From: an uncultured Bacillota bacterium
Lineage (GTDB): Bacteria > Bacillota_I > Bacilli_A > RFN20 > CAG-826
Length of the DNA: 64,000 nt
Assembly: GCA_949299565.1 (NCBI GenBank)
Contig: OX437086.1
Location: forward strand, 880,099-944,098
Direction of reading: 5' to 3'
Part shown: positions 6,726 through 62,015 of the stretch, in pieces
Numbering within the stretch: the first letter of the stretch is position 1
Layout of the letters: each line of letters starts with the position of its first letter
The notes under the pieces: model-generated
Database searches by the model: none
What the model saw: the letters and a program-made list of their open reading frames with translations, nothing else
Told to the model about the DNA's origin: nothing
Program-made: the position numbers and the translations under genes

Positions 6726-6753
6726 TTGACATTAAAAAGAAACTTTCTAAATT
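6726..6753 (+). promoter_or_regulatory. Candidate sigma-70-like promoter for the lipoprotein gene at 6835
   Basis: TTGACA at 6726-6731, 16-nt spacer, TAAATT at 6748-6753, about 80 nt upstream of the start codon. Confidence 0.3.
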
Positions 6754-6834: not shown

Positions 6835-9138
6835 ATGTCTAAGAAACTTCAATCAAAACTTTTTCTTGGAGCCGCGATTCTTTTAGGCACAAGTGTGACA
6901 CTTTTATCGTGTGGCGGTCCTGCTACTTCAGAGGGAGAAAATAGCTCTTCATCCAGTAGCAACGATACTTCTTCAACGCTTCCGATCGAAAGTCATAGCA
7001 TCAGCATCGGCGAGACGGGAGGCGCGGTTCTTGAACTTTCTGCTGAGACTGCTTCGAGCGGAACGCGAATAGAAATTACAGTCGTCTCGGTTCCTGATGA
7101 CAAGATTATCAGCGCAATTACGACTGATGTTCCGGGAGTTGACGTCATTTCCTCCGGAAACAACAGTTATTATTTCATCATGCCGAACAGTGACGTCACT
7201 ATAAGCGTCACTTTAAGCGATCAAATCGCTGATAGTTACCCATTGACTCTAGTCAATAACACGGATGGAGAAATTGTTGGGATCAGCGACAGTCAAAGCA
7301 ATCAAATTGACGAAGAAAATGGGGTTTATAATTTAACCCCGAACGCTTCTTATTATTTACGGATTATCAACTATACCGGAGCGATTACGGCAAATCTAAA
7401 CGGGGCACCGCTCACAATCGGCGAATATTACATTTCATTTGTAATGCCAGCCGCAGCTTCGACATTGACCATCGATCCGGCTGCTTCTTATTCTGTTTCC
7501 TTTATTTATGATGCAGAAGCTTTTAGTGAAGACCCAATCCTTATTGATTTTGCCTCTGATTACGGAACAATTCTCACGCCATCTAATATCGTGGAGGGAA
7601 CAGAGGTTTATATTGCTGCTTATCCAAATTCCGGTTATTTATTGACGGCGATTAATTTAGATGGCACGCCGATTCAAGAAGAAAACGGCAATTACGTCTT
7701 CACGATGCCGGGTCATGATGTCACGCTAGAATTCATCACTGAAAGCGAGGCTTCTAGTTCATACCTCCTCAACGTAAACGACGTTAACCAAGCCTTGAAT
7801 TTCGTAGTTTATGAAGTCAACGACGGCGTTTTCGAGGAAATTGAAAATTACACACCAACCCAGCGTTTCTTGGAAGGCAGCACTTTGGCAATTTCTTTCA
7901 GCGTCACCGCTCCTTACCGCAACATTTATACCCTTGGCGAAATTGTCATTGACGGCGTTTCAGCAACACCCGATTCAGAAGGACATTATTCTTTCGTTGT
8001 CGCTGATCACAATGTGGAAATCACGGCAAATACAACGCTCATTCAACATAATTTGGCTTTCGATGCGCAAGGAAGCGGCGCCAGTTGTCTCTTCTACAAT
8101 GAAGAAGATGAAATCATTACAACTGCCGGTTGGAATCAAATGGTTAAAGCCGTCTTCACTCATCCTGAGGGCTTAACCTTATTAGCTGTTTATCAAAACG
8201 GAACATTAGGAACTGGTACGCTTGAAGGCAACACTTATACCTTCACGATGGGACAAACAGATTTAACTTTAACAGCCGGCTGGTCAAGCTCCACTAATGT
8301 CTATAATCTCGGCTACAGCGTGACTCCGAGCGATTTAGCCGCACAAGTTTCTGTCACCTTCTTCGATTCTGATAACGGCTTTGGTGATGAAATAACTGAA
8401 GCTGTTGCTGGTCAAACAGTTTATGCACAAATATCGGTTGAAAGCGGCTACCGCGTTGCAAATGTTTCTTTTAACGGCAATACGCTTTCGCTCGTCGAAG
8501 GTTATTATCCGTTAACAGTTTTAGAAGAAGATGTAAAAGTCGAAATTACCGTTGAAGTTTCAAATACCTACAACCTTGTAATTGATCGAAGCAACGCTCC
8601 GTCTGGCACCATCATCGATGTTGTCGATGAAAACGGGACATACTTAGAACTCGTCTCAGGCCATTACGAATTGAGTGCCGGCGACATCGTCTATTTCGAT
8701 CCTTGGGCTCCTGATAGTACTGTTTCTGCGATGTATGCAAATGGCACCGCTCTAGAATTTGTTAGCGGCATTCCGACTCCCTCCGGCACCGGTTATCAGT
8801 TAGAGATGCCGAGTGAAAATGTCACAATCACAATTGAATGGGGAGAAGGAGAAATTCCGTCCGGAAGCAATGAAATCATTTATGTTCCTAGCGATTTAGA
8901 TCCTCAAACTGAAAATTTTGGTCTCAACATTTATAGCGGTTCAACTTGGCAAAGCGTAACTTCTGCTCAAGAAGGCGAAATGATTCTCATCAACGTTTAT
9001 GGTTATCCTGAAAACTACACAATCGAAAATCTCTATGTCAACGGCGTAGTCGTCGAATTTAGCTACGACTATGGAATGTATGTCTTTACGATGCCGGCGA
9101 CAACCGCTTATATCAGCATCAGCTGGCTCATAAGCTAA
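6835..9138 (+). CDS. Surface lipoprotein with repeated beta-rich modules (InlB-B-repeat-like)
   Basis: Signal peptide with lipobox LLSCGG, Ser-rich linker, then at least four repeats of a 60-80 aa module (G-x-E/T-V-x-I ... P-x-x-G-Y ... N-G ... Y-x-F-x-M-P ... D/N-V-T-I). Confidence 0.85.
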   Translation: MSKKLQSKLFLGAAILLGTSVTLLSCGGPATSEGENSSSSSSNDTSSTLPIESHSISIGETGGAVLELSAETASSGTRIEITVVSVPDDKIISAITTDVPGVDVISSGNNSYYFIMPNSDVTISVTLSDQIADSYPLTLVNNTDGEIVGISDSQSNQIDEENGVYNLTPNASYYLRIINYTGAITANLNGAPLTIGEYYISFVMPAAASTLTIDPAASYSVSFIYDAEAFSEDPILIDFASDYGTILTPSNIVEGTEVYIAAYPNSGYLLTAINLDGTPIQEENGNYVFTMPGHDVTLEFITESEASSSYLLNVNDVNQALNFVVYEVNDGVFEEIENYTPTQRFLEGSTLAISFSVTAPYRNIYTLGEIVIDGVSATPDSEGHYSFVVADHNVEITANTTLIQHNLAFDAQGSGASCLFYNEEDEIITTAGWNQMVKAVFTHPEGLTLLAVYQNGTLGTGTLEGNTYTFTMGQTDLTLTAGWSSSTNVYNLGYSVTPSDLAAQVSVTFFDSDNGFGDEITEAVAGQTVYAQISVESGYRVANVSFNGNTLSLVEGYYPLTVLEEDVKVEITVEVSNTYNLVIDRSNAPSGTIIDVVDENGTYLELVSGHYELSAGDIVYFDPWAPDSTVSAMYANGTALEFVSGIPTPSGTGYQLEMPSENVTITIEWGEGEIPSGSNEIIYVPSDLDPQTENFGLNIYSGSTWQSVTSAQEGEMILINVYGYPENYTIENLYVNGVVVEFSYDYGMYVFTMPATTAYISISWLIS

Positions 9139-9190
9139 AGGTAATTATTTATCTATTTTCTTGATTTCTAAAAAGTAGAAAGGATTTACT

Positions 9191-10657
9191 ATGCAAAGAA
9201 AAACCCCGCTTTTGTTCTTAACTACGCTTGGCGGACTATCGCTTTTGGCTTCTTGCGGAGGAGGTGCCTCTTCCTCGTCCATAAGCGAAGCACCATCGCT
9301 CAATCCGACGCTTCAAGCACTCCGCCAAGGCTTTAGAGTTGAGGGAACTATCGAGATAAATGAAAGTTATTATAGCGACCGCAATTATCAAGTGCCTGAT
9401 CTTGCTTTAAGCGACACAACCACTCGTTACCGCTATGAACTTAATTTCGAGGATAGTGCAAACTTCACTGGCGTTGATCGCCGCTACTACCAAGTCTTTG
9501 ATTTAGGGGACGGCGAGACACAAGAAGCTTATTATTATGGCGAGAACTCCTATAACAATAACGGCTATGCCTCTTTAATTTACCTTGATTACAATAACGA
9601 GTTAGTCAATGACTACGCCGTTGATTCAAACGGCGAATTGATTCCTTATGCTAACAACGGGCTGCTCAATCCGTTTAAACTCCTTCAAAGAGGCGACTTT
9701 CACGAAATTGAAGGGGGTTTTATGTTGGATAACGCTAAAACATCGGTTTTCCTTGATGGCTTCTTCTCGTTGTTAGATGGTTATCAAGATAACATCGTTT
9801 ATGAAACGAAAACTTTTGCCTTCGGTGATTCTACTTTGGAATCTGCAACTTTTATATCTTATAACATCGATGATGGTTATAGTTCCACCGTTCCAAGCGA
9901 TGATGATCCGCTTCATCAAACCTACATTCGCCGCAATTATCAAATAGACATGGAATTCTCCGAAGTCGGAAGCGCAACTTCTCACGATTTAATTGCTGTT
10001 GAACCGGAGAAAGAAGAAAACGCACCCTTAAAAGCGGCGCTAGAAAATATGGTCGCACAAGAGGAAGTGACCGTCCAAAGACGCATTACCCCTTATATAG
10101 ACGGGGAATACGTTGGAGAGGATAATTACCTTAACATTTATTACATGGGAGAGGAAGAAGGGATTTATTCGCAAAATTATGTTTTAGCCCCGGATGAAGA
10201 AGTTCCTACCGCTCCAAGCGCCTCCGATTTCATCTTGAAACCGGCAATCGCGGGCGGGCGTCTCCGTGTCTATCAATTAGATGATACAACCGGCAATTTC
10301 ATCCTCAATTCGTCAAATTTCACTTCTTTAGACAACGTCTATTACTATGCTGACCAGCAATATGATCTTTCTTATCTTGATGCAAACATCTTTAACATCA
10401 ATGAAGACGGATCTTATTCGCCGACCGTTGATAACCTCCCCTATATCACGCGCGACATCTTTATGTCATATCTGGACACTTTCACGCCTGTCGATAATGG
10501 ATATGTCAATTCAGTGCGAATTTATGTCAACGAAGAGGCGACTTGCATCGATCATATCGATATTCAATACGCCGATCATCTCGGCTATTCGGGGGAAATG
10601 GTCATTTCCTACAGTGATCTCGGAGATTCGCATCCAAGTTTCGCGATTAATTATTGA
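9191..10657 (+). CDS. Lipoprotein, acidic Tyr/Asn/Asp-rich, unknown function
   Basis: Signal peptide with lipobox LLASCGGG; RBS GAAAGGA upstream; paralogous to the next gene. Confidence 0.85.
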   Translation: MQRKTPLLFLTTLGGLSLLASCGGGASSSSISEAPSLNPTLQALRQGFRVEGTIEINESYYSDRNYQVPDLALSDTTTRYRYELNFEDSANFTGVDRRYYQVFDLGDGETQEAYYYGENSYNNNGYASLIYLDYNNELVNDYAVDSNGELIPYANNGLLNPFKLLQRGDFHEIEGGFMLDNAKTSVFLDGFFSLLDGYQDNIVYETKTFAFGDSTLESATFISYNIDDGYSSTVPSDDDPLHQTYIRRNYQIDMEFSEVGSATSHDLIAVEPEKEENAPLKAALENMVAQEEVTVQRRITPYIDGEYVGEDNYLNIYYMGEEEGIYSQNYVLAPDEEVPTAPSASDFILKPAIAGGRLRVYQLDDTTGNFILNSSNFTSLDNVYYYADQQYDLSYLDANIFNINEDGSYSPTVDNLPYITRDIFMSYLDTFTPVDNGYVNSVRIYVNEEATCIDHIDIQYADHLGYSGEMVISYSDLGDSHPSFAINY

Positions 10658-10667
10658 GGAGTCTTTT

Positions 10668-20207: not shown

Positions 20208-21614
20208 CTATTTGATTTCATCATGCTTTTGACGGGCGATGTTATATGGGTAACTGCCCGCTCGCGTTTTTCGCCAATCATGCCCTAATGGCAACGCTTC
20301 TTCTTTCTTTTCTAAGAACTTTTCATTCAAAGATTCCTCTTTGATTGGAAAATCATTTATCCGATACTCGATTTTAATTTTTCTGTTCTTCTTCTCTTTT
20401 TTAAACGCTTCTTTAGGGATTGCTCCGCTTTTAATAAGGGCAATCTTTGCTAAGACGGGGCCAGCCATTTCATATAAAACAGAAGAACACAGAATGATTG
20501 ATAAGAACGTATCGCCGATTGATGATGGCAACATCCGCTCCCCTAAAAAAGCTAAACCAATCGCGACGCCTGCTTGAGGCGCTAAAGCAAAACCTAAGTA
20601 AATCCTCGTCTTTTTCTCGCTTTTTGTGATTAAAGCGCCTAAATATGCTCCGCCATATTTACCAAGCAAGCGCACGATAAAATATATAACGCCAACAACG
20701 CCGATCGTCATAAAAGAAGAAAAATCCATGTTCATTCCGCTCATAACGAAGAAAAGGAGCATGATGGGCGGACTGAAGTGATCGACATAGTCAAATAACT
20801 TCTCATCCTTCGTAAAATTGGTGTAACTTGCCCCGAAAACCATGCAAGACAACAAGGGAGAAATGTCTAAAAGAATGCAGGCTCCGCTGATTAAAGAAAT
20901 AAGGGCGACAGCGATGATTAATCGCGAATTCGCTGAACGTCCTTTAATTAAAAGTTTTAAGAGAAAGCCAGCTAAGAAGCCTAAGGCCACAAAAGAAAGG
21001 TTATAGATGACTGGGAGAATGATTTCTAAGGCATTGACGTTGCCGCTTTCTAGTCCTTCGACGATAGAAGAAGCAAGAGTAAAAGCCAATAAGCAAACTA
21101 CGTCATCAAGCGCCACTACTTGTAAAAGCGTCTCAACAAATTCGCCTTTCGCCTTATATTGATTGATGGTCATCAATGTCGAAGCCGGCGCAGTGGCCGT
21201 GGCAATAGCCCCTAAAAGCAAGGCAAAATTCCATCCTAGATCTTGAAAGCACAGCCCGATGACAAGCGTCACTAAAACACCCGCCAGAAGCGCTTCTAGT
21301 AAAGTGATGACAATCACCCGTCCGCCCGTCGCCTTCAAAACCTCTTTCTTAAAAAACTTACCAACTCCAAAAGCAATAAAACCCAAAGCCAAATCGCTTA
21401 AAAACGACATTCCGGAGATAATCGTCGGAGAAATTAAATCCAAAACAAATGGTCCGATTAAGATTCCGCTGATGATATAACCCGTTACGTTCGGCAATTT
21501 AATAAGCTTCGTGACTCGCGAAATAAGAAAGCCCGCGAAAAACATAATCGCCAGAGCGATTAAAATCGTCGCTCCTCCAAATCCTTCGTAATATTTATAA
21601 AGATTAAACGGCAT
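20208..21614 (-). CDS. Monovalent cation:proton antiporter (CPA-type, Kef/NhaP-like)
   Basis: Start at MPFNLYKYY with RBS AGGAGA upstream; about 12 predicted TM helices with Gly-rich CPA-like segments. Confidence 0.8.
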   Translation of the reverse strand: MPFNLYKYYEGFGGATILIALAIMFFAGFLISRVTKLIKLPNVTGYIISGILIGPFVLDLISPTIISGMSFLSDLALGFIAFGVGKFFKKEVLKATGGRVIVITLLEALLAGVLVTLVIGLCFQDLGWNFALLLGAIATATAPASTLMTINQYKAKGEFVETLLQVVALDDVVCLLAFTLASSIVEGLESGNVNALEIILPVIYNLSFVALGFLAGFLLKLLIKGRSANSRLIIAVALISLISGACILLDISPLLSCMVFGASYTNFTKDEKLFDYVDHFSPPIMLLFFVMSGMNMDFSSFMTIGVVGVIYFIVRLLGKYGGAYLGALITKSEKKTRIYLGFALAPQAGVAIGLAFLGERMLPSSIGDTFLSIILCSSVLYEMAGPVLAKIALIKSGAIPKEAFKKEKKNRKIKIEYRINDFPIKEESLNEKFLEKKEEALPLGHDWRKTRAGSYPYNIARQKHDEIK

Positions 21615-22621: not shown

Positions 22622-24307
22622 CTATTTAAGGGGTTTCTCGTACAAGGCAAACGTCGTGAGGTTTTTCTCTTTTAAATCTGTGGGATCATAATTTTTGCCG
22701 TTTTCTTGATAAATGTGGAGTCGATAATGCTTTGCCGCTTCTTCATTACAAATCGCGACTAAAATTGTTGAAGAATCAACATTCATCGATGAAACGATTT
22801 TCGCGGCTTCTGAGGTTGAATTGATTTCCTTTTTTAAGCGTTTCTCCAAGAAAATAGAACATTGTTTAAAAGCTTCGTTTTTCGATAAATAAAGCGTCTC
22901 CTTATCATAGATCATATTTCTATCAAGTTCGCGGTTGCTCGCTAAAACGTATCGAATCGGCTTAACGAGTTGCTCGACTTCCTTAAAAGATGAGAATTCG
23001 TTTTTCGGCTCTAAGTCTTCGTTATTGTTGCTGATTGGCACTAAAGCAAGATCTAGATAGCCGTTTTCCAAATATTTTCGTTCAGTCATGAAATCATCGA
23101 AATAGATTTTCTTGTAATCAGAATATTTAGAGGCAAGTTCTGTCCGAAAGGCCATATCTGTATTCGAATAAGGGTATCCGAAAATGCCAATTATTTTTTG
23201 TCCGGGTTTTCTGATCGAATAGAAGGAAGAAGAATAGTCTAGTAATTTTGCATCTTTCTCGCTGATCCGATAAAAACGGACGCGACCGCTCAATTTAGTG
23301 CCTCTTGAGAAGAACCAGCCATCCATCGTCGTAATCCCGTTTTTCCCGATCTGGCCAATGAATTGACAGTTCCCTTCAGCCCGATCACCGGAATTGTTTG
23401 AAACATTCGAGGAATAATGATAGAAGCCCTTCCCGACCATGTCATGCTCGTCAATCCCGAAAACAAAGGAATCCGCCGAGAAGAAAAGAATATCTTCTCC
23501 AACGAAATGACATTTCATCGAGAGCTGTTTCTTTTTATAAGAAATATCGACAATCCTAAGCCTTAAACCTTTCGGAACATAAGCAAGGCCGTCCTTCCGT
23601 TCTTCAAAAGAATAATAAATCCACTTCCCCGTAATCAACGAGTTGCGGTTATCTTCATCAAAGCCCGTCATCCCCAGCACGAGGTTTAAAACAACAACTA
23701 AGACCGTTCCTACCGCGGAATATATTTCTTCATTGGCCTCCGGCAAAAATTTAAAAAACGAGGAAAGGAATAAAAGAATCGTCAAAGTGATCGAAATTAA
23801 GGCAGAAACCAAACGCACGATGAAAGAGACCGTCACATGCGAACCGAAATAATTTTTGATGCGCATGATCAAAGAACGTCGATAATCATTCAATTTAAAT
23901 AGACGAAACTCGAGCATTTCAAAATCTTCATCATCCTCGTCGTATAAAAAGCTCAAGGCTTCCTCGTTATTCTCTTTCGAGAGAGCGTAATTTGAATAAC
24001 GCGAATTCACGAAACGGCTAAGCTTATCGATTTTTGCAACGAATAAGCCGATTTCGATGATTTGATCGATATTTAAACGGCTGATTAAAGAGAGGAAATC
24101 ATAATTTGGATGATTATCGATGGTTCGCGACGGAAGAAGCAAAAAATCAATCTCGCGTTTTTTTAAGCGCGCGACCATTTCTGATAAAGAAGCACATAAC
24201 ACAAGTTCAACTTCCTGCCCCTCAAAAAGTTTATGATTCATGAGGTTTGAAAGTAACACTTCTTTTTGAAGGGTTTCCGGTGTCTTTAAATATCCGACTT
24301 TCAGCAT
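22622..24307 (-). CDS. Membrane protein built from prephenate-dehydratase (PDT)-like domains, no ACT domain
   Basis: N-terminal about 100 aa resemble the PDT N-subdomain (VGYLKTPETL...ELVLCASLSEMVARLKKREIDFLLLP); two hydrophobic helices in the middle; C-terminal about 250 aa resemble a full PDT domain (IGIFGYPYSNTDMAF...LDLALVPISN...STSEAAKIVSS...NLTTFAL) with TTF where TRF is expected. Confidence 0.65.
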   Translation of the reverse strand: MLKVGYLKTPETLQKEVLLSNLMNHKLFEGQEVELVLCASLSEMVARLKKREIDFLLLPSRTIDNHPNYDFLSLISRLNIDQIIEIGLFVAKIDKLSRFVNSRYSNYALSKENNEEALSFLYDEDDEDFEMLEFRLFKLNDYRRSLIMRIKNYFGSHVTVSFIVRLVSALISITLTILLFLSSFFKFLPEANEEIYSAVGTVLVVVLNLVLGMTGFDEDNRNSLITGKWIYYSFEERKDGLAYVPKGLRLRIVDISYKKKQLSMKCHFVGEDILFFSADSFVFGIDEHDMVGKGFYHYSSNVSNNSGDRAEGNCQFIGQIGKNGITTMDGWFFSRGTKLSGRVRFYRISEKDAKLLDYSSSFYSIRKPGQKIIGIFGYPYSNTDMAFRTELASKYSDYKKIYFDDFMTERKYLENGYLDLALVPISNNNEDLEPKNEFSSFKEVEQLVKPIRYVLASNRELDRNMIYDKETLYLSKNEAFKQCSIFLEKRLKKEINSTSEAAKIVSSMNVDSSTILVAICNEEAAKHYRLHIYQENGKNYDPTDLKEKNLTTFALYEKPLK

Positions 24308-24339
24308 ATTGACATTATATACAAAGAAACTTCTTGTTT

Positions 24340-25008
24340 TTATCTTTTAAGGGTCAGGCGATAACTATTATCGATATAAGAATATATTTCTTCGTTCTTC
24401 ACCGTCCCGTTTAAGAGAACTGTAAACCAGTTCTTTTTATTCATGTGATAGGCTGGGAAATAATTATGATAGTCAAGTAAAGAAGATAAGCGTTCTGGTT
24501 CAATCCGTAAATCTAAAATCTCTAGGTTCTCTTCACCTAAAAGACCGATTTTCTTCTCTTTTACAGTTAATAACGCCGCGTACCACGTCTTTGTGTCCTT
24601 TCGCCTAAAAATTGCATTATTCGGGAACTTCTTCCAAAGATATTCCGGTTCATCGCCATATGTTCTTTTTATGTATTCAATTACGAGTTTTGTTTGTTCG
24701 CCTTTAAAGATTTCAGTCGCACAACAATTATTTATAAAGTTCTCGATTGCTGCGTTATAAGCTTCTCTGATTGAACCGATAAATTCTCCGATTGCTTTAG
24801 AGATTAAATGAAGAACATATTCTTCATTCGTGGCTTTTTCGCTTATCCTTACCCATAATTCATCTCCCTTTAAAACATAAAGTTCAAGAAGAAAACGGCC
24901 CCCTAATATCTCGCTTTTATAGGAATAGACGTTATCTAAATAACTAAAACCAAATGGTATAAGTCTCTCAGTGATTATCTTTTTGTTTATTAAGGGAATT
25001 TGCTTCAT
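24340..25008 (-). CDS. MmcQ/YjbR-family putative DNA-binding protein with N-terminal extension
   Basis: C-terminal half (WYAALLTV...LDLRIEP...PAYHMNKKNWFTV) matches my recollection of MmcQ/YjbR motifs. Confidence 0.6.
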   Translation of the reverse strand: MKQIPLINKKIITERLIPFGFSYLDNVYSYKSEILGGRFLLELYVLKGDELWVRISEKATNEEYVLHLISKAIGEFIGSIREAYNAAIENFINNCCATEIFKGEQTKLVIEYIKRTYGDEPEYLWKKFPNNAIFRRKDTKTWYAALLTVKEKKIGLLGEENLEILDLRIEPERLSSLLDYHNYFPAYHMNKKNWFTVLLNGTVKNEEIYSYIDNSYRLTLKR

Positions 25009-25452
25009 GTTTCTTTATCTTAAACATTAAGCCATAAGAGTTCCTTAATCATCAAAGAAAAAACATTTTGTGCGACTACTTTGTTATTATTCTGAGTTAT
25101 TACACAACAAGATTTAAAAAATGTCGAAAAGAAAAAAGAACTTTAATGCTATAAAAAATTTTTCCATTTTATTTCTCCTAACTCTTTCAATTTTTCAAAA
25201 GCGTTTGCATCTATTATTGTGTCTAACCACGGTCCGTTCCCTCCTTCGTCAAAAATGCCGTTGGTACGAAGGCTATCTAATTAAAGATGGCTGAGAGAAA
25301 TCTTCTATAAGCAATGATTTAGTTCTCAACAAGCATTATTAGTCGAATGCTTTTATTTATGCTTTTTCTTTTTTCATAAAAGTTAAACAACAACTCGATG
25401 TATTGAGCTTTTTAAAGATGACTAATTTTTTGATGAAACTTATTCGCGGTCG

Positions 25453-26247
25453 TCAAATATTGCTGATAATGTTAAATAATAAAACGAAAATCAAAACAAG
25501 AAACACTATGAGGCCAAATAAATAACCCATGGAATATGCTATATCGTTTTTCTTATTATTTTTATAACTCGTTTTTTTGCGTACTATTTTTTTATTTTTG
25601 GGAGATATACTGTTTTTTACAGTACCTTGCGTTTTATTGATATTTTTATGTTCAGACAAACGTTCCCAATGCCGCGCAGGGACGCATTTTTTTAAAGCAT
25701 TATACGCTTCTAGATGTTCATCAACTATTTTTCGACAAGCTATTTGATACCTATTAAAACTGGCCATTGGAATGGTTCCATCATAAAGAGAATCAATATC
25801 ATTAATGATCAAGTCGACGCCATTGTTATACATTCCTGTCTCATATTCTATCTTTAAATGTAAAATAAGATGCTCTAAAAGATTGCAGTAGGTTAAAACG
25901 TCAGGTTGGTGAAAGCTAATATATAACGATGAATAAGGTTTATTTGGACCAACATACAAATTCTCTTGCTTAGATAGTTGCGGGTATTTATTTTCAAGAT
26001 CATGATGAATTGAAAGTCCTTCTAACCCGCGCTTAATCGATTTGTTTTGTTTGAATGTATAATTTTTATCAACAATAAAATAAGAACCACTAACTTTCCC
26101 ATATTTGGTTTTAAGAGCTCTTAAGCATTGCTTATAGTTCAAATCACAATATAAATGCTGGAGAAATCTTTCATCTTTTTGAATTTTTTGATATTCAGCT
26201 TCCCCCAAACTTGAGTTTGCTGATTTAGATTCATTGGTTGATTCCAT
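25453..26247 (-). CDS. Hypothetical tail-anchored membrane protein (island gene)
   Basis: 264 aa; soluble N-terminal domain, Lys-rich linker and a single C-terminal TM helix; AT-rich codon usage like neighbouring island genes. Confidence 0.5.
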   Translation of the reverse strand: MESTNESKSANSSLGEAEYQKIQKDERFLQHLYCDLNYKQCLRALKTKYGKVSGSYFIVDKNYTFKQNKSIKRGLEGLSIHHDLENKYPQLSKQENLYVGPNKPYSSLYISFHQPDVLTYCNLLEHLILHLKIEYETGMYNNGVDLIINDIDSLYDGTIPMASFNRYQIACRKIVDEHLEAYNALKKCVPARHWERLSEHKNINKTQGTVKNSISPKNKKIVRKKTSYKNNKKNDIAYSMGYLFGLIVFLVLIFVLLFNIISNI

Positions 26248-26577
26248 ACTTAAATTATATGCTTAAGTTTTGCACAATAGCTTTTATTAAGAATTACTAT
26301 AAAACCAACTTTATAATATGCAACTAAAGATGCACTGCCATTAATTTCACCATAAAAATTATGACGAATATCAATTCAGAAAACGCAAAATGATTGATAT
26401 CGCTATTGCAGATGATGATAAAGTAGTCGTTCTTTTGTGTTTTTATATGTCTATGACTCAAAATATAGAAAAATTTTAGCTAAGAAAATAATAACAAAAA
26501 CTTTCATTGCCTTGTCACTGAAACTAATATCACCATATTTTTTAGGGAGTAGCACGCGTACAAATATGACGTAAATT

Positions 26578-28440
26578 TTACCTAATTTTTAGCATTTTCT
26601 TTATATGTTCATTCAAAGCTTTATCTTCGCAAAATATATAGCATCCTTTTTGCCCACGCGTTAATAGGGTGCGATAAGTGTTTTTGATGATAATATCGCA
26701 ATCTTTTTCGTGAAGCGGGTTATTCTTGTAGCCCTTTAGTGATTTGTCAGTTTTAGCTCTTGCATCTTTGTTTGTTAAAACATTACCGTGCCTATAGATT
26801 AGGTCTTTTCCAATAATCACACCAACGTGATCAAATTCAAGCCCCTGACACGTGTGAATGCAGCCTATTTGATCAAAAGAGTCCTTATCTATTGCCCAAG
26901 TCTTGGTGTTTGAAAAGTTCCACTGAGCTTTAAAATCGCTCCCTATTTGAATATCAAATTTTGTCAAATCATCACGACTTATCCAATCATAACAATAACC
27001 CGCAACAATTCTAGACTTATTGTTTATCTCGTTTTTCTTTCTCAGCTCTTCCCTCATTGCAGAAGGGCTATCGAAGACCTTTATATCATATTCCTTTCGG
27101 TCGAAACTAACATTCGCTGTAGGCCTAATTTCTAGCAAATTATCTAAAAAAGCTAAGTATGCGTCACTACCATTACATCTAAACTGAGATGTTAGCGTCA
27201 ACTCTTTTCCAAAATAGGCTTTTGAATCTAAAATTTTAGCCCATTTTTTAATTTCGTCTATTGAACCGATATCGCTGGAAGTAATTCTTTGATCCTCGTC
27301 AATAAAAAAGACGCTAACCTTCGCTGCGTTAATTATTTCTTTTATTTGGTTTTCGCCTTTGCCGTTAAAAATAGATTTTTTGTTCAAACGATGAGCTTCA
27401 TCGGCAATGATACAATCGAATTCGTTTTTAGTGGAGTCAACAAAAACACCACTGCCTTTAAATAAATTTTTAATATACGCTTTTTTAAAATCTCCACCTG
27501 CGAGTTTTTTATAATAAACTTCTCGTGGTGCACTATTCTTAGAAGTGTAGATAGCATTAAAACCATCGCGAATTAAACTCGACAGCATCTTGATTGCAAT
27601 CACAGATTTTCCAGTGCCAGGACCGCCTTGAACGATAATGGTATGTTTAGTGTCGGTTTTTAGACTCTCATTAATCGTTTTCAAAATAGTTTCATATGCT
27701 ACCTTTTGCTCATCCAATAGTTTAAAAGAATCATTTCCTTTAATTAACCTTTCGATTTCATCTTGTAAAGCAGTTGATGGTCTAATTTTTCCATTTTCAA
27801 TTTCGTATAAAATTTTTCCATCATCAGGATTAACAACATACTTCTTTATAAAATCAGCCAGTTTTTTTCGATCCCTTTGTAGAAAAAGCGGAGCCTCTTT
27901 TATTATAGTTCGATAGCGCTCATCTTCGATTTTATATCGATTTGATTCATTGAAATTATGAAGAAAGGCGCAAGGAATCATTCGAATATTCTTTTTTTGA
28001 ATAGATTCGTTAAAATTCTCGATAGTTTTCGCATAACTATATGCTTGATATGATGGGTGTGCCTCTTCTCTATATGCTCTTGCGACATAGGTTATTACTA
28101 TATCCTTCTTGTCGCTTAGTTCTATATCTTCCCATTGCTTAAGTTCTATGATGACTGCGTTGCTTTTGCCGTGATCGTCTCTACCTGTGATTATAAAATC
28201 AATTCTTTTCGATGTTAGAGGAATTTGAAGTTCTATTGCGACGTTTAAATTTCTATTTATTCCAAAAGATTCATCAAAAACTCCATCAATCTGCGGCAAC
28301 GAGTTCTCAAAGGCACGATGTTCCCTTGGATTATTATGCGTGAGTCCTTGCTTGCGAAACCCATCCTCGATTCGATCAGCAATGACGCCATTTATAATGT
28401 CTTCATGAAATTTGCTTACGATGCTAGAGTAGATTATCAT
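26578..28440 (-). CDS. PD-(D/E)xK nuclease-like N-terminal domain fused to a DUF2075/SF1-helicase-like P-loop ATPase
   Basis: N-terminal IDFIITG ... AVIIELKQW (D ... E-x-K); Walker A VQGGPGTGKSV; Walker B/DEAH-like CIIADEAHRL; motifs SQFRCNG and CQGLEFDHVGVIIG; start ATG overlaps the MazG-like stop (ATGA). Confidence 0.8.
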   Translation of the reverse strand: MIIYSSIVSKFHEDIINGVIADRIEDGFRKQGLTHNNPREHRAFENSLPQIDGVFDESFGINRNLNVAIELQIPLTSKRIDFIITGRDDHGKSNAVIIELKQWEDIELSDKKDIVITYVARAYREEAHPSYQAYSYAKTIENFNESIQKKNIRMIPCAFLHNFNESNRYKIEDERYRTIIKEAPLFLQRDRKKLADFIKKYVVNPDDGKILYEIENGKIRPSTALQDEIERLIKGNDSFKLLDEQKVAYETILKTINESLKTDTKHTIIVQGGPGTGKSVIAIKMLSSLIRDGFNAIYTSKNSAPREVYYKKLAGGDFKKAYIKNLFKGSGVFVDSTKNEFDCIIADEAHRLNKKSIFNGKGENQIKEIINAAKVSVFFIDEDQRITSSDIGSIDEIKKWAKILDSKAYFGKELTLTSQFRCNGSDAYLAFLDNLLEIRPTANVSFDRKEYDIKVFDSPSAMREELRKKNEINNKSRIVAGYCYDWISRDDLTKFDIQIGSDFKAQWNFSNTKTWAIDKDSFDQIGCIHTCQGLEFDHVGVIIGKDLIYRHGNVLTNKDARAKTDKSLKGYKNNPLHEKDCDIIIKNTYRTLLTRGQKGCYIFCEDKALNEHIKKMLKIR

Positions 28441-28763
28441 AACTTATCATATTTAAGAGATTTTGATTTGCATTTTTCAATAGGATATTTTCTTTTCGTT
28501 TTTTCAAGTTTATCTAAAACAATTTTATTGATATCAAGATTCAAGACTTGCGCCATTTGAATACAATAATTAATTACATCGGCAAGCTCGTCTTTTACAT
28601 CATTTGAGTTGAAGTTTTTCTCATCCCATTGAAAACACTCAAGAAGTTCGTTGGCTTCAATGGAAATAGATTTAGCTAAATTAGCGGGTGTATGAAATTT
28701 GTTCCAATCTCTCTCGTCAACGAATTTTTTAATTTCCGCTTGCAATAAATCTAGTTTATCCAT
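28437..28763 (-). CDS. MazG-like nucleoside-triphosphate pyrophosphohydrolase (small all-alpha type)
   Basis: 108 aa with the EExxE-type metal-binding segment (SIEANELLECFQWDE, DELADV); translationally coupled to the nuclease-helicase gene. Confidence 0.75.
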   Translation of the reverse strand: MDKLDLLQAEIKKFVDERDWNKFHTPANLAKSISIEANELLECFQWDEKNFNSNDVKDELADVINYCIQMAQVLNLDINKIVLDKLEKTKRKYPIEKCKSKSLKYDKL

Positions 28764-28858
28764 GATTTTATTTTATCATTGTTAAAGATTAAAAAACTAA
28801 AGAAATGTTCGGCACTGCTTTTCAGTATCGGAGTATCAAAATAACCACTTCAATATTG

Positions 28859-28879
28859 CTTAACTTTTTAAAAGTTAAG
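28859..28879 (-). promoter_or_regulatory. 21-bp near-perfect palindrome upstream of the MazG-like/nuclease-helicase operon (candidate operator)
   Basis: CTTAAC-TTTTTAAAA-GTTAAG, about 100 nt upstream of the MazG-like start; AT-rich, so not a convincing terminator. Confidence 0.3.
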
Positions 28880-29088
28880 AAGCTACATGGTACTAGAATC
28901 GCCTCACATTCTTGTCTGAATCATTTGCATAGCCGTAACATCTGCCGTCGAAATGCTCAAATTGTTCCAAATCATGAGTAACCTCAATACCCTCTAGCAA
29001 AGAAGGCAACAAACCAAAGCAAACAACCCTGTTGCAATAAGTTTGGCAGCTAACAACAAAAAACTCAGTCCTATAACTCAGTAATCGA

Positions 29089-29769
29089 TTATTCAACCAT
29101 AAGAGTTCCAATGAATTGACCAACATTTGACCCTAGTTCTTCTTTAAGATCATATAAATCTTCACAAAATTCTTGTTCATTCTTGATTGCAATTTTAATT
29201 TTGTCTTTATAAATTGCGAAGTCCAAATTGCGCTTATTGTGATGGAAAAAATTTTCAACCTGTAATTCTAAGTATCTTTTAGAATTCTCTTTACAATTTT
29301 CAAGCATCTTTTTCCTATCTAAATTGAAAATTTTATCGTCATGCATTAACAAAAATAATTCAAATGTCGGATTTGAAATACAAAGCTTGTATCCTTTTTC
29401 ACAACATAATTTTAAATAAGTATCATATTGCTCCGATTTAAAATTCTGAGGATCACGATCAAAAACGAATACTGCAATATCAACATCCTTATCATAATTA
29501 ATTTTGCCTTCTTTTACTGAGTCCTCAAAATTATTGATTTTACGTTTTAAATGACTTTGACCAACTTCGTCTTCCTCGTTTTCAATAATAGTAAGCTTTA
29601 TAAGTTTGTTTAGATGAAGACATTCGCTATTGTTTTTTAAGCCTTCAAAATATCTTATTTCAGTTACATCGCCCTCCGAAACAATAAAACAGAATTTATT
29701 AAACTCTCTATTATTTCTTTTTCTATCATAATTACTTTTGCTGCCAAGTTCTCTCATCAAACACCTCAT
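29089..29769 (-). CDS. RloB-like protein (AbiLii-like partner of the upstream ATPase)
   Basis: Motifs CFIVSEGDVTEIRYF and CISNPTFELFLLMH match my recollection of the RloB family; start overlaps the ATPase stop (TAATG). Confidence 0.7.
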   Translation of the reverse strand: MRCLMRELGSKSNYDRKRNNREFNKFCFIVSEGDVTEIRYFEGLKNNSECLHLNKLIKLTIIENEEDEVGQSHLKRKINNFEDSVKEGKINYDKDVDIAVFVFDRDPQNFKSEQYDTYLKLCCEKGYKLCISNPTFELFLLMHDDKIFNLDRKKMLENCKENSKRYLELQVENFFHHNKRNLDFAIYKDKIKIAIKNEQEFCEDLYDLKEELGSNVGQFIGTLMVE

Positions 29770-31112: not shown

Positions 31113-31134
31113 GGCTTACCTCCTCTTTGGTTAG

Positions 31135-31227
31135 ATTATAAGTGAAATTATCACTTGCAACAATCTTATTGAGTAATAAATTAACCTTATTTTGAAAATA
31201 TTTTATAAATTAAGGTGAAATTTTCAC
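31135..31227 (-). promoter_or_regulatory. Promoter of the AbiL-like operon with two palindromic operator-like sites
   Basis: Minus-strand reads GTGAAAATTTCAC (31215-31227, perfect 6-bp arms) ... TTGCAA-GTGATAATTTCAC (31142-31154)-T-TATAAT (31135-31140), then RBS and ATG at 31112; the second palindrome lies between the -35-like and -10 hexamers. Confidence 0.4.
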
Positions 31228-31302
31228 ATTGATTTAAAAGTATCGCCATGTTTTTTATTCTAAATAAGGTATTAAGACAATCAATTAAACCGCCACTGTA
31301 TT

Positions 31303-31328
31303 AAATAAAACAGCACCATTAAGTGCTG
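31303..31328 (-). terminator. Candidate Rho-independent terminator after gene 31426..32202
   Basis: Minus-strand hairpin CAGCAC-ttaatg-GTGCTG followed by TTTTATTT; stem is only 6 bp. Confidence 0.35.
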
Positions 31329-31425
31329 AAATTTGAGAATGTCTTTGTGTTATCGATTTAATACAAAACGATACCCCCTGTTAGAAAAATGACACCATTA
31401 TAAAGTGTTTATTTTGTTTGGCTTT

Positions 31426-32202: not shown

Positions 32203-32324
32203 ATCTATGCCTCCCTATATTTTTCAAAGAATTTATCTTCACCTGCTCTTCTAGCTTTAATAACATCTATTTTATATTTGAATCTGCCGAGCAAATGTGA
32301 TCTGTGTTGAAATATAATTTGAGC

Positions 32325-32650: not shown

Positions 32651-32765
32651 TTGCTTTGTAACCAATCAATAAATTTATAAACAAAATTGAAACCAAAAAA
32701 ACGAAAATAAAAGGATGGTTGTCGCCCACCACCCCAATTCAATCAAAGGAGGTTCTCATAGAACC

Positions 32766-34519: not shown

Positions 34520-34563
34520 ACAATTCGTGTATTGTATCCTTCTTTCGTTTCAAGAACAAGTAA

Positions 34564-57972: not shown

Positions 57973-59133
57973 CTAATTGCCTAAAGCCGCTTCATCAAGA
58001 GCGATTTGCTCCATAATGCCGGGAATCACTGTCGTCCCGATATTGTCGATTGTGAAACGAGCCACATAATCAGGCTGAAATTCATCAGTCATGTAAATAC
58101 CGGGGAAAATGAATTCACCGTAAAAATGTTCATCATCAAATTGCATTTTGCCGGTGACAGCCAAATGATATCCAGAATTAAAGAGGCTGCTCCCATAGCC
58201 CGGATCAGCAGCGATAAAAATCGCAATCGGCAACGAATAATCGGGGGCGTAGACATCTGGACCAAAATTCGTAATCTCATTTTCGTCTGCCCCGGCGTTA
58301 TATTCCAGATAAGCGCCATCCTCGCTCAAGGTTAGATGAGAATCTTCGACTTTAAATTCATCGCGAACGAAATAACTTAAATCACTGGTGTAAATTTCTT
58401 TATAATCGCTGATGCCGAGGAACCCTGAATAATAATCCATCGCTCCTTTAACCACTTCACCGTTGCTATTGACGTCATAATCATAGACATAGCCGTCTGG
58501 GGAATTATAGCTTCCGCCTTCATAGAGATTTCCATTCGAATCTTCTCCATAGCGGTAGTAATAAGCTTCGTCGGTAAATTTAGCGATATTTCCGTTGACT
58601 GCAAAATCATCATAAAGCGATAAGGAATATTCATCGCTATTCGTGACTTGTGCAATCTCGTTGCGCGTCAAAGCCTCTCCATCCTCACTTAAAAAATCAC
58701 CGGTCCAAGTAATCGTATAGTTATAATCGCTGCCCAACGAATAAAGCATTGAAGTGAGATCGCGTGCCTCTAAAACGTTGACGCTGAATAACTTGTTGAC
58801 TTGATATTGAGGATTACGGACGCTTGTCGCCGTCACAAAGAAGGATCCGCTTTTTTCCTTTGCAGACAAAACACCGTTTTCATCGATTGTCGCTAAAGTT
58901 TCATCGCTGACGCTCCAACTGACTTCTTCATCATTCTCTAATGACAAAGTTAAACTTTGTCGCGCATGCAATGTTGTCGTCGATGCCAAAATTTCACCAA
59001 GTTCGACATAGGCAGTCGTTGGCAGAGAAGAAACATCACTACTCGTCGATGAACTAGAAAGCGGCTCTCCGCAGCTAACTAATAGCAACGTTGAAAGAAA
59101 TAACGAAGAAAAAACATAGAAAGATTTTTTCAT
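57973..59133 (-). CDS. Surface lipoprotein with N-terminal Big_2-like domain
   Basis: Lipobox LLLVSCGE, Ser-rich linker, Ig-like segment, acidic Tyr/Asp-rich C-terminal region. Confidence 0.8.
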   Translation of the reverse strand: MKKSFYVFSSLFLSTLLLVSCGEPLSSSSTSSDVSSLPTTAYVELGEILASTTTLHARQSLTLSLENDEEVSWSVSDETLATIDENGVLSAKEKSGSFFVTATSVRNPQYQVNKLFSVNVLEARDLTSMLYSLGSDYNYTITWTGDFLSEDGEALTRNEIAQVTNSDEYSLSLYDDFAVNGNIAKFTDEAYYYRYGEDSNGNLYEGGSYNSPDGYVYDYDVNSNGEVVKGAMDYYSGFLGISDYKEIYTSDLSYFVRDEFKVEDSHLTLSEDGAYLEYNAGADENEITNFGPDVYAPDYSLPIAIFIAADPGYGSSLFNSGYHLAVTGKMQFDDEHFYGEFIFPGIYMTDEFQPDYVARFTIDNIGTTVIPGIMEQIALDEAALGN

Positions 59134-59138
59134 TTTGC

Positions 59139-62015
59139 TCAGGCTCCTTTCGTTAAATTGATTGTTGAATCGTCGAAGGTCGTGCTTAAGGATGAGAAAG
59201 CTTCATTTTCATCCATGTTGATTGTCATTGTTTCAGAAAGCATCGAAAGATCGGAAGCGTTAGAAGAAGTAACGTCAGTCAAAATAATGCTAAGACCATT
59301 GATTGTCGCTTTCGCCTCGTATAGATAGGTCGTTTCAGTCACTTCACCTGTATGCCAATCTTCTTCCGAGAATTTGATTTCAACGCTTAAATCCATAACC
59401 CCTTCATTTAGAGCTCCAAAGCTAAATTTATAACTATAATCGCCCCAAAAATCGCTCGTTTCATAGTTGAAGGTATTTCCAGCGATTTCATTGCTGAAAT
59501 CAGGAACAGGTTTAATTTCAATCTCTTTCTCCACTGATTTTGTCGGATCGGCAACCGAAGTCGCGACAATCGTCACAGTCCCCGCTTCATTGCCGCTTAC
59601 CAGATAAAAATCAGTTGAGATGCCCCAGCGATCCGGCCGTTCTTCAATTCGGGCTCCGTGAGTTTCACTGCCTTCTTTGAAAACATAGGTTATTTCATCG
59701 GTGGCGATACCGGTGCTCGGTTCTACCGTCGCTTCAATTATCGTCTCTTGACCAATGTAAATCGAATCGGGAGTTCTAGAGGTAAAACTGATGCTCTCAA
59801 TCGCTTTATTCGAAACATTGATGGCAATTGTCACCGGTTCTGCTTTTGCCGTTTCGATTGTCAAGTTGACTTCACCAGCCATTTCAGCATCGAAATAATA
59901 GCCCGTTCCGCCATAAGTCGCTTTTTCCGGAAGCGAAATAATCCCTTCCTTGTCGAGACTGAAACTTGGAATATCAATGTCGATAAGCGCGCTGTCAGGC
60001 AAATAATTGGTGAGATCTAAATAATAACGGTCGCCGTTAAGCAATTGATAAACATCGTTTTCGGGCGCAATCAATTCTTGAGAAGCATCGCGAATCTCAA
60101 CATCAAAGGAAGAGAAGAAATAATCATCTAAATTGAAGAAATTGTCATGATCTTCTCCGCGTTCGCCGCTCAAAAGTTGAGCGCTCACTCGTTCTATAGA
60201 ATATGGAGTTGAACTGCTCGGCTCTTCATCGATGGAAGAAACTTCATATTGAGTATGCGAATAGGAAGCGGAACGGAGTTGTCCCTCGACATCGAAAACA
60301 ACATTTAGCCGATATTCGTGGAGATAAATGTCATGAAGGAAATCTTCCTCGTAATAACGAGAATATAAATCGTAGGCGTTATCGCCAACGACAATCGTCG
60401 CGTGGCTCAACAATTCTTCATCTTCAAAGGTCGCGTTATAACCATCGAATAACGTTGTGTATAGATAATCAGCAACACCATTATAAGTTTCATCCAATTC
60501 AAGCGCTCCGAAGGTATTAATCTCCTTCAAATACTCTTCACGATTACCATCAGTCACGTCGCTGACTGGATTGATAATGCTGCTGGCGCCGAAAGAGTCT
60601 TTCTTCAACGTGTAATATTTATTGTCGACAATGCCGCGATAATAGTATTCAGTCGTATTGGTCGGCGTCGTCACTTCAGTCACTGAGTGCTCATCAGCGT
60701 ATGCTTCAAAATGATACGTCGTTTCAGCGATTGCCACGTCAGATGTAGCTTTCGTTTCGCTCACGAATTCGACCTCATTGACATTTTCGCCTTCAACTTC
60801 TCGAGCCAATGCCAAGCTGCTTTTAATTCCGGCCACGTTGTAGTCGGTTTGCGTGACTGGCAAAAGGCTGATTGAAGCACGAATGCTGGAATTATCGCGG
60901 AGGGTCGCGGTCACAGAACAACTGCTGCTTGAAGGCTCTAAAACCGTCAAGAGACCATCCTCTGTGATCTCTAAATAACTTGAATCGAAGCTCCCAACAC
61001 TCCAAACGATATCCGCATAACTGCCTTCCGGACTTAAAGTAGCCTCCATCTGATAGGAATTTCCGACGACGACTAAATAACGATCGTAAATCGTGTAATC
61101 CTCATCTAAAGTCGCGCCTTCTGGAACGTTGATTGTTAAGCCAGTGGCAAAAACGACGATTTCAACATTAAGAGAATTGAGACCCTCGACGACTTGGAAA
61201 GTATAAACACCTTCTTCAGTTGACGTTAAGGCGCTTCCGTTAAGCGTGACCTCACGAACAATGTAACCGCTATTGGCAGTAACGTTAACAGTCACCGTCT
61301 CCCCAACCGGATAATAGTCGTCAACTTTGTCGACAGAAACGTTTCCATTTTCATAATTGCCACTCAAACGCACTAAACCATATCCCGGCCTTGCAGGAGC
61401 GAAACTCGAAGAGAGGAAATTTTTGCCTTCAACTACTTCAAAACTATAAAGATTGTCAGTGGGTGTTAGAACTTCGTCATTCAGTTTTATTTCATCGACA
61501 ATGTATGTTTCATTGATTGGACTAACTTCTAAAACAACTCGAGTGCCAACTTCGAGGCGACTATTGCTCGCGTCTAAAACCGTGCCGTCCTCCAATTTCG
61601 GCGTAATCGTGCCGAATTCATCGCTTTCAATCACCCTAACCGTTCCGTAACGAATTTCTGGTTCTAAGGCACGATAAGTAACATTGACAAGATTTTGTCC
61701 TTCTTTGACTGAGAAAGTATTGCTAGCCAACAACTCGCCATTTAAGAAATAAGATTCAACCGCGTATCCGTTCTCAGGCACAACTAAAATTTCTACTTCT
61801 GTTCCCAACGGCAAATCACCAGTTTTAGAAAGCGTTACCTCGCCATGAGCAAAAGCGGTTTCAGCGATGGAAACGCTATATAGTTCTTCGTGCGAAATAG
61901 AACTGCTTTGATCGCCACTTGAAGTATTGCTCGCAAGAGGTTCGCTGCAACCGACAAGCGCAAACGACGAAAGAGCAAGAAATGAAACAAGAAGTTTCTT
62001 CAAATTCTTTTTCAT
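59139..62015 (-). CDS. Large surface lipoprotein with InlB-B-repeat-like modules
   Basis: Start at MKKNLKK (ATG at 62013-62015, RBS AAGGTGGAG; the track ORF begins at an upstream GTG); lipobox FALVGCSE; repeats like those in the 6835 protein. Confidence 0.8.
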   Translation of the reverse strand: MKKNLKKLLVSFLALSSFALVGCSEPLASNTSSGDQSSSISHEELYSVSIAETAFAHGEVTLSKTGDLPLGTEVEILVVPENGYAVESYFLNGELLASNTFSVKEGQNLVNVTYRALEPEIRYGTVRVIESDEFGTITPKLEDGTVLDASNSRLEVGTRVVLEVSPINETYIVDEIKLNDEVLTPTDNLYSFEVVEGKNFLSSSFAPARPGYGLVRLSGNYENGNVSVDKVDDYYPVGETVTVNVTANSGYIVREVTLNGSALTSTEEGVYTFQVVEGLNSLNVEIVVFATGLTINVPEGATLDEDYTIYDRYLVVVGNSYQMEATLSPEGSYADIVWSVGSFDSSYLEITEDGLLTVLEPSSSSCSVTATLRDNSSIRASISLLPVTQTDYNVAGIKSSLALAREVEGENVNEVEFVSETKATSDVAIAETTYHFEAYADEHSVTEVTTPTNTTEYYYRGIVDNKYYTLKKDSFGASSIINPVSDVTDGNREEYLKEINTFGALELDETYNGVADYLYTTLFDGYNATFEDEELLSHATIVVGDNAYDLYSRYYEEDFLHDIYLHEYRLNVVFDVEGQLRSASYSHTQYEVSSIDEEPSSSTPYSIERVSAQLLSGERGEDHDNFFNLDDYFFSSFDVEIRDASQELIAPENDVYQLLNGDRYYLDLTNYLPDSALIDIDIPSFSLDKEGIISLPEKATYGGTGYYFDAEMAGEVNLTIETAKAEPVTIAINVSNKAIESISFTSRTPDSIYIGQETIIEATVEPSTGIATDEITYVFKEGSETHGARIEERPDRWGISTDFYLVSGNEAGTVTIVATSVADPTKSVEKEIEIKPVPDFSNEIAGNTFNYETSDFWGDYSYKFSFGALNEGVMDLSVEIKFSEEDWHTGEVTETTYLYEAKATINGLSIILTDVTSSNASDLSMLSETMTINMDENEAFSSLSTTFDDSTINLTKGA

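Follow-up and report, generated by a model that had tools for sequence, protein, structure and literature searches.

Three unrelated units, among them a conserved and predicted four-gene operon, make up a lipoprotein cluster of an uncultured Bacillota bacterium

Does a dense cluster of lipoprotein genes in a gut bacterium amount to one variable surface repertoire, or to something else? This question is raised by positions 6,835 to 19,679 of a 64,000-nucleotide stretch (the window) of contig OX437086.1, which belongs to the assembly of an uncultured Bacillota bacterium (GCA_949299565.1). The original prediction, made from the letters alone, recognized six surface lipoproteins in these 13 kb and took them for an adhesin or antigen repertoire of the kind that often varies between strains. 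We find that the interval, with its genes numbered LP1 to LP6 in order of position, consists of three unrelated units, namely the predicted operon LP1–LP4, LP5, and LP6, and is not one repertoire. With even confidence we interpret the interval as encoding a stable surface for attachment and nutrient capture in a gut bacterium of the class Bacilli ("Mollicutes-like") with a reduced genome. Three results stand out: the conserved four-lipoprotein operon, a large unannotated family of predicted surface barnase-like ribonucleases (RNases), and a possible homopolymer switch in LP6.

The lipoproteins were identified with a PROSITE PS51257-type lipobox rule, which asks for an N-terminal K/R, a hydrophobic core, and [LIVMFWSTAG]2-[LIVMFYSTAGCQ]-[AGS]-C within the first 35 residues. 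Applied to every open reading frame (ORF) and every start codon of the window, this rule returned six lipoprotein precursors in the interval, exactly the ORFs named before. Outside LP1–LP6 the scan yielded just LP7 and LP8, plus one implausible internal match at 40646. LP1–LP6 each carry a K/R-rich N-terminus and a hydrophobic core, with the cysteine at position 18–26, and in all eight proteins a Ser-rich stretch follows directly after this residue. From their lipoboxes, LP1–LP6 are predicted to be exported, lipid-anchored at the cysteine, exposed at the surface, and held off the membrane by a disordered Ser-rich tether. The chance of six lipoproteins in seven consecutive genes anywhere in the window, computed for 8 lipoproteins among 40–55 genes, is ~3e-4 to 2e-3. 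All six members of the presumed cluster are real, but a gene for a GrpB-GNAT fusion without a lipoprotein signal sits inside it. Because Tandem Repeats Finder detected no DNA-level tandem repeats of note in the window, the repeats of the encoded proteins are old. No riboswitch or leader scored above threshold when the cluster was scanned with Rfam.

The first unit consists of LP1 to LP4. These genes are separated by gaps of 52 and 10 nucleotides (nt), and the start of LP4 overlaps the stop of LP3 by 4 nt. Such tight packing, together with the conserved order described below, points to a single predicted operon. The start of LP3 is an internal ATG of a longer ORF (10347–12161), and public gene calls use the same start. 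LP3 as a gene-calling artefact was ruled out, since its start at 10668 and its lipobox agree with public gene calls and with the orthologues.

A species-level scan with one genome per species located nine loci in metagenome-assembled genomes of uncultured gut Bacilli or "Mollicutes", for example UMGS238. The order and orientation LP1-LP2-LP3-LP4 are the same in all nine, and each protein has a lipobox. Identities to the window amount to 32–40% for LP1, 50–62% for LP2, 48–55% for LP3, and 41–47% for LP4. The farthest LP2 relatives that we checked (L016, at ~36% identity, and L017/L018) retain the gene order as well; LP1 of L016 is just 350–358 amino acids (aa) long and has three repeats. Taken over all 12 related loci examined (L003–L011, L016, L017/L018, and the same-species strains), identities range from 26 to 40% for LP1, 36 to 62% for LP2, 36 to 55% for LP3, and 33 to 47% for LP4, and every one of these loci holds the same four genes in one copy each and in the same order. 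The comparison of presence, absence, and copy number that had been suggested as a check for strain variation therefore spoke against it: LP1–LP4 are one-to-one between loci, and the gene set within the species is the same. What does differ between species is the length of the LP1 orthologues (358–961 aa) and their number of B-repeats. When the ORFs of 11 loci were clustered, the LP1–LP4 families alone were common to all, and no other family occurred in more than three. LP5, LP6, the GrpB-GNAT gene, and the flanking genes of the window are absent from the related loci; LP5 and LP6 occupy other places in other species. Some of these loci have lipoproteins of their own around the cassette: L004, L008, and L010 encode further large lipoproteins (~556–575 aa) upstream and a 333-aa protein in the flanks, and L004 and L010 encode lipoproteins of 689–702 aa downstream. 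None of these flanking proteins matches any protein of the window.

LP2 and LP3 had been described as tandem paralogues that share terminal motifs. The paralogy holds (E 7.6e-12), but the homology spans the full length of both proteins, with 26% identity over ~480 aa, and is not limited to the termini. The clustering of the 11 loci groups LP2 and LP3 into a single family, to which each locus contributes exactly two members. LP2 orthologues are much more similar to LP2 than they are to LP3, and the reverse is true of LP3 orthologues, so that each forms a separate orthologue group in each locus. Because both have their own orthologue in every locus, the duplication predates the divergence of these species. 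By these alignments LP2 and LP3 are ancient paralogues and not the outcome of a recent expansion.

The partners of this pair carry modules known from adhesins. LP1 exceeds the cutoff of the Flg_new_2 model (PF18998, divergent InlB B-repeat; E 5.8e-11, 42.7 versus 23.6 bits), in agreement with its earlier description as an InlB-B-like repeat protein. A hidden Markov model (HMM) trained on the copies of the window itself, of which the positions alone are usable because its E-values are circular, places ~8 B-repeats in LP1, one in LP4 (aa 54–117), and three in LP8. The B-repeat of LP4 is recognized solely by this window-trained HMM; against Flg_new_2 the protein reaches 16.7 bits, below the cutoff of 23.6. 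Its BspA-type leucine-rich repeats (LRRs), also proposed before, are beyond doubt (LRR_5, PF13306; E 2.8e-59, 199 bits versus a cutoff of 27.7). LP4 further gives a partial match to the NCBIfam HupY/LrrG adhesin model (E 2.3e-23). Like the internalin, BspA, and HupY (LrrG) adhesins, LP4 combines LRRs with an InlB-type B-repeat. Unlike internalins and HupY, which use an LPXTG or GW anchor, it has a lipoprotein anchor and carries the B-repeat ahead of the LRRs. Since its score of 82 bits compares with a HupY cutoff of 1250 bits, LP4 is no HupY orthologue. The expectation of adhesin-type modules on predicted surface lipoproteins is thus borne out by the B-repeats, the BspA-type LRRs, the Big_2 domain of LP5, and the GLUG-type region of LP6. 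As to the Pfam annotation proposed as a check, Flg_new_2, LRR_5, and Big_2 lie above cutoff, whereas Ribonuclease and Glug stay below.

Members of a variable adhesin or antigen repertoire, such as Vlp, Vsa, or Vpma of Mycoplasma, would switch or differ between strains in the service of immune evasion or tropism. Loci of other strains of the same species, drawn from ~24 metagenome assemblies, are collinear with the window and identical in gene content and order. Amino acid identities to the window are 98.7% for LP1, 99.2% for LP2, 98.4% for LP3, 96.6% for LP4, 98.2% for LP5, and 98.6% for LP6. The flanking housekeeping genes are 97.7–99.7% identical, and the lipoprotein genes are no more divergent than these. 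Ratios of nonsynonymous to synonymous substitution rates (dN/dS; Nei-Gojobori, against L012) are 0.076 for LP1, 0.083 for LP2, 0.059 for LP3, 0.096 for LP6, and 0.157 for LP5, compared to 0.06–0.16 for those flanking genes that have at least two synonymous differences and for which dS is defined. LP1, LP2, LP3, LP5, and LP6 are under purifying selection. LP4 is alone in the locus in having a raised ratio (0.40), and nine of its 20 changes fall in aa 120–151 (window 12515–12610). This cluster of changes sits between the B-repeat and the first LRR. As a separate observation, LP3 of the window is devoid of five residues, YSYRY (residue ~103, window ~10974), that are present in every other strain; contig L001 carries them, yet is 100% identical to the window in LP1, LP2, and LP4.

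The Mycoplasma proteins Vlp, Vsa, Vpma, and Vaa are likewise lipoproteins of a reduced-genome Bacilli lineage, and a coding homopolymer of LP6 does vary in length between assemblies, as does its poly-Ser run; two LP6 versions are out of frame. The concentrated changes of LP4 and the differing repeat numbers of LP1 and LP6 between species also fit a variable repertoire. Unlike the Mycoplasma systems, the LP genes form no family of near-identical paralogues (the sole pair is 26% identical), contain neither DNA tandem repeats nor any other homopolymer tract inside genes, and are under strong purifying selection (dN/dS 0.06–0.10 for LP1, LP2, LP3, and LP6). With the strains collinear at 96.6–99.2% identity, dN/dS at 0.06–0.16 except for LP4, and LP1–LP4 one-to-one in every related locus examined, we consider it very unlikely that the cluster is a variable repertoire. 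Residual hints of variability are the ratio of LP4, the tract of LP6, and the repeat number of LP1 between species.

LP6 is the third unit, and the one in which switching could occur. At the end of its linker the window contains a tract of eight cytosines (C8) that is in frame. In L012 the tract reads C9+A and is also in frame; in L013 it reads C8+A and is frameshifted, and in the public gene call P0394 the linker is likewise out of frame. In both L013 and P0394 the signal peptide and the mature LP6 domain are in different frames. The length of the poly-Ser run differs by 4 residues between assemblies. Counting contigs per LP6 variant cluster gives ~24 in frame and 2 out of frame. LP6 orthologues in other species do not conserve the tract. 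These differences could reflect slipped-strand switching (phase variation) or assembly error. The earlier description of LP6 as a GLUG-motif protein with a poly-Ser linker is right about the linker. The GLUG assignment holds by homology, but not as a direct Pfam match: LP6 itself scores 8.4 bits against Glug (PF07581; E 4.2, cutoff 20.5), while aa 68–379 align with the GLUG region of P0255 (E 1e-19, 30% identity), which in turn scores E 1.4e-26. Many database matches of LP6 carry a precomputed PF07581 annotation, and the region shows GGIVG/GGIAG-type motifs. LP6 departs from GLUG-motif proteins in its C-terminal half, where ~6 copies of an ~80-aa module form a lineage-specific array (self-trained HMM); the number of copies differs between species. 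A PDB sequence search with LP6 returned nothing, and lipocalin-like hints are faint (DUF4923 E 0.09, DUF5640 E 0.9). LP6 is probably a binding protein.

What, then, may the conserved pair LP2 and LP3 do? Apart from the signal peptide, neither protein is matched by a Pfam or NCBIfam model, and 72 diverse relatives gave scattered chance matches to Pfam but no consistent one. A profile search of the PDB with the family matched signal peptides only, and sequence models of LppX_LprAFG and LolA recognize neither LP2, LP3, nor any of the 72 relatives. A word-indexed search identified 24 clusters of relatives; an exhaustive profile search through 1.84 billion proteins retrieved only 103 representatives, almost all of them 440–520 aa long and none of them named. 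The AlphaFold2 (AF2) model of LP2 (predicted local distance difference test score, pLDDT, 86; predicted template modeling score, pTM, 0.77) consists of two helix-plus-sheet halves, for which a comparison of the N- and C-terminal halves by hhalign (E 0.2) gives no evidence of internal duplication. The model resembles the lipid-carrier lipoproteins LprF, LprG, LppX, and LolA in having an open beta-barrel with helices (LolA or LppX-LprAFG type), and on this structural prediction we assign both LP2 and LP3 to the LolA-like fold class. Across an alignment of 24 sequences, the residues that never change are for the most part aromatic, Gly, Asn, or Asp; the lipobox Cys is invariant, and no Ser, His, or other Cys is among them. 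This makeup suits a binding protein more than it does an enzyme. With modest confidence we propose that LP2 and LP3 handle a hydrophobic ligand.

The similarity to known carriers ends with the fold class, as LP2 and LP3 share neither sequence similarity nor a Pfam LppX_LprAFG/LolA match with LppX, LprG, LprF, LolA, or LolB. These proteins comprise ~200 aa in one domain, LP2 and LP3 ~490 aa in two halves. Unlike the LppX, LprG, and LolA systems, LP2 and LP3 are a fixed paralogue pair that belongs to a monoderm Bacilli lineage and is accompanied by LRR and B-repeat lipoproteins. LprG is paired with the transporter Rv1410c; no transporter adjoins the LP2/LP3 cassette. Alternatively, LP2 and LP3 could be protein-binding scaffolds or regulators, or bilobed capture lipoproteins that take up a macromolecule of the host or a partner, like TbpB, with LP1–LP4 serving purely as an attachment complex. 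A LolA-like fold is indeed used for protein activation in Firmicutes: GerS, a lipoprotein of C. difficile, has this fold and activates an amidase instead of carrying a ligand (bioRxiv 10.1101/2025.01.13.632879). Foldseek also lists the two-barrel proteins BFA1 and AttH (E ~1e-5, probability 0.97) and TbpB (probability 0.25–0.54), and the operon partners, LRR and B-repeat proteins, are typical of adhesins. TM-scores to the two-barrel proteins are low (0.14–0.20), and LP2 and LP3 have no sequence relation to any of these proteins. We regard a scaffold or capture role as less likely and keep the binding of a hydrophobic ligand as the preferred, if cautious, interpretation.

LP5, the second unit, is of a different kind. 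Its Ig-like part matches Big-like (E 2.5e-10) and Big_2 (E 3.9e-8), both above cutoff, and the AF2 model (pLDDT 83) places three Ig-like domains ahead of a C-terminal region. For this region a PDB sequence search returned nothing; in the model its core adopts a barnase fold. In a pairwise alignment that includes nearly the whole of barnase, LP5 has two insertions, and its residues E445, R473, R477, and H504 pair with Glu73, Arg83, Arg87, and His102 of barnase. Two segments of the barnase sequence used in this alignment, not including the Glu73 motif, were confirmed by PDB alignments. The four residues are invariant in 42 LP5 homologues at 40–54% identity. The family has >2000 homologues, among them proteins of Candidatus Onthovivens, and is named only "Ig-like domain-containing protein". 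The original label of a Big_2/barnase-like protein is therefore sustained, as fold and catalytic residues support the second half of it despite a sub-threshold Pfam score. According to the model and the alignment, LP5 shares with barnase and binase (RNase N1/T1, PF00545) the fold and the Glu/Arg/Arg/His set. It differs by the two insertions, by extra N- and C-terminal segments in the C-terminal region, by its fusion to three Ig-like domains and a lipid anchor, and by the missing barstar partner (in the window and among neighbors of two homologues).

An intact active site would also suit an antibacterial or anti-host toxin used in competition, and barnase-fold RNases are common as toxin domains. 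No member of the barstar Pfam family was found among the called neighbors of LP5 homologues in two other species, a weak negative as small ORFs were not profiled, and tblastn of the window with a barstar sequence gave only matches with E >1. In both other species the LP5 homologues adjoin unrelated housekeeping genes. LP5 is lipid-anchored and not released, and it belongs to a large family. Because it is predicted to be lipid-anchored and is conserved, and no immunity gene was found in the window or among the neighbors read, LP5 is better explained as an enzyme that digests extracellular RNA to salvage nucleotides than as a toxin; the housekeeping neighbors and the lack of a called barstar gene likewise fit a housekeeping exo-enzyme. 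A role as a toxin is quite unlikely in our view, and LP5 more plausibly acts as a nutritional RNase. Mycoplasma surface nucleases act at the surface of a reduced-genome cell, and LP5 would do likewise. The GrpB-GNAT gene follows LP5 on the same strand after 2 nt and converges with LP4, the two stops overlapping by 4 nt. Between strains the fusion protein is 99.7% identical, with no synonymous change. As an immunity partner of LP5 it was rejected, since it is not linked to the LP5 homologues in the two other species.

Based on folds, conservation, and context, we propose the following division of labor. The products of LP1–LP4 would probably form one surface assembly, in which LP1 serves as a stalk of B-repeats with a species-specific number of units and LP4 provides a binding module of B-repeat and BspA-type LRRs. 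LP2 and LP3 would bind hydrophobic cargo, for instance lipid or glycolipid, as a pair and hand it to the membrane. LP5 would display its RNase on the three Ig-like domains and cleave RNA outside the cell, at its surface, so that nucleotides can be salvaged, and LP6 may contribute a further binding function through its GLUG-type region and ~six small repeat modules. Reduced-genome Bacilli such as RF39 are uncultured and widespread in human and animal guts. Highly reduced genomes with many auxotrophies have been reported for RF39-type Bacilli (PMC12306168). This report, and a length of 1.06 Mb for the longest contig carrying these proteins, are in keeping with a nutrient-capture surface.

Several points weigh against this proposal. 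Clustering of the 11 loci revealed no conserved transporter next to the LP1–LP4 cassette. Because GerS is a protein activator with a LolA fold, the fold alone does not settle the function of LP2 and LP3. LP5 scores 17 bits against Pfam Ribonuclease (PF00545; E 0.0086) and does not reach the cutoff of 24, and a profile of its domain run against the whole PDB sequence set matched barnases only, at nonsignificant E-values of 0.5–1.7. RF39 membership of the window and the lack of lipid and nucleotide synthesis in this genome are assumptions. A more ambitious version, a lineage-wide surface machine in which an LP2-LP3 heterodimer extracts lipids or glycolipids from host material or neighboring cells while LP4 holds the material and LP1 sets the spacing, with LP5 representing a surface barnase family for nucleotide scavenging, is doubtful at present.

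The positions of all features are compiled in Table 1.

Table 1. Window coordinates of the lipoprotein genes and other features
Feature	Position	Strand	Basis
Promoter-like site, TTGACA-16-TAAATT, in the 224-nt gap upstream of LP1	6726..6753	+	Consensus scan, 10/12 matches; pattern match only
LP1, predicted 767-aa lipoprotein, ~8 divergent InlB-B-type repeats, first gene of the predicted operon	6835..9138	+	Lipobox, Flg_new_2
LP2, predicted 488-aa lipoprotein, undescribed family, LolA/LprG-like predicted fold	9191..10657	+	Lipobox, AF2 model
LP3, predicted 497-aa lipoprotein, LP2 paralogue	10668..12161	+	Lipobox; 10 nt downstream of LP2
LP4, predicted 583-aa lipoprotein, one B-repeat (aa 54-117), then BspA-type LRRs	12158..13909	+	Lipobox, LRR_5
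GrpB + GNAT acetyltransferase fusion, non-lipoprotein	13906..14868	-	Pfam GrpB 7.6e-45, Acetyltransf_10 5.2e-15
LP5, predicted 551-aa lipoprotein, Ser-rich tether, three Ig-like domains, C-terminal barnase-like domain	14871..16526	-	Lipobox, Big-like/Big_2, AF2 model
Predicted barnase-like RNase core of LP5 (aa 376-511)	14994..15401	-	Fold and catalytic residues
LP6, predicted 991-aa lipoprotein, long Ser-rich linker, GLUG-type region (aa 68-379), ~6 copies of ~80-aa module (aa 502-986)	16704..19679	+	Lipobox, homology, self-trained HMM
C8 homopolymer at end of LP6 linker, length differs between assemblies	16892..16899	+	Homopolymer scan; one of two C-runs of at least 7 in the window
Bidirectional terminator-like hairpin after LP6	19697..19727	.	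12-bp stem, 6 GC pairs, T-runs on both strands
Schlafen-group-3 / Nhi / AbiO-like helicase	26578-28440	-	Low-GC island
AbiLii/RloB	29089-29769	-	Low-GC island
AbiLi	29769-31112	-	E 3.9e-78; low-GC island
tRNA-Trp(CCA)	34446-34519	-	Borders low-GC island
LP7, predicted 386-aa lipoprotein	57973..59133	-	Lipobox; weak Big_2 (E 2.8e-4, below cutoff) as sole domain hint
LP8, predicted 958-aa lipoprotein, three B-repeats	59139..62015	-	Lipobox; Flg_new_2 E 2.6e-8, 34.2 bits, above cutoff

Elsewhere in the window, the second lipoprotein pair had been said to repeat the InlB-B-like module. This is correct for LP8, which is locally similar to the repeats of LP1 and LP4, but not for LP7. Downstream of the cluster, other strains have an additional gene for a 187-aa hexapeptide-repeat transferase between a Na+/H+ exchanger and a 91-aa ORF (L012 5832–6395). 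At 20015–20208 the window has just a 193-nt gap instead, and this gap holds its only other C8 run (20058–20065). Positions 24000–34600 form a low-GC island (GC 0.29–0.33 versus ~0.41 elsewhere) that carries defense genes; the bordering tRNA gene suggests that this island is an integrated element.

This locus teaches that a dense lipoprotein cluster is not necessarily a variable antigen locus. The LP1–LP4 operon, conserved down to ~26–36% identity and built around an undescribed family with a predicted lipid-carrier fold, is a candidate interface for the acquisition of lipids or nucleotides by reduced-genome gut Bacilli. The large family of presumably surface-tethered barnase-like RNases, labeled only "Ig-like" in public records, is a second candidate, and both could guide cultivation and annotation. 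If the more ambitious version is true, LP5 would stand for a large family of barnase RNases, anchored at the surface and so far unannotated, and LP1–LP4 would be a previously unrecognized monoderm counterpart of LprG/LolA-type lipid shuttles, which would explain how these lipid-auxotrophic organisms feed.

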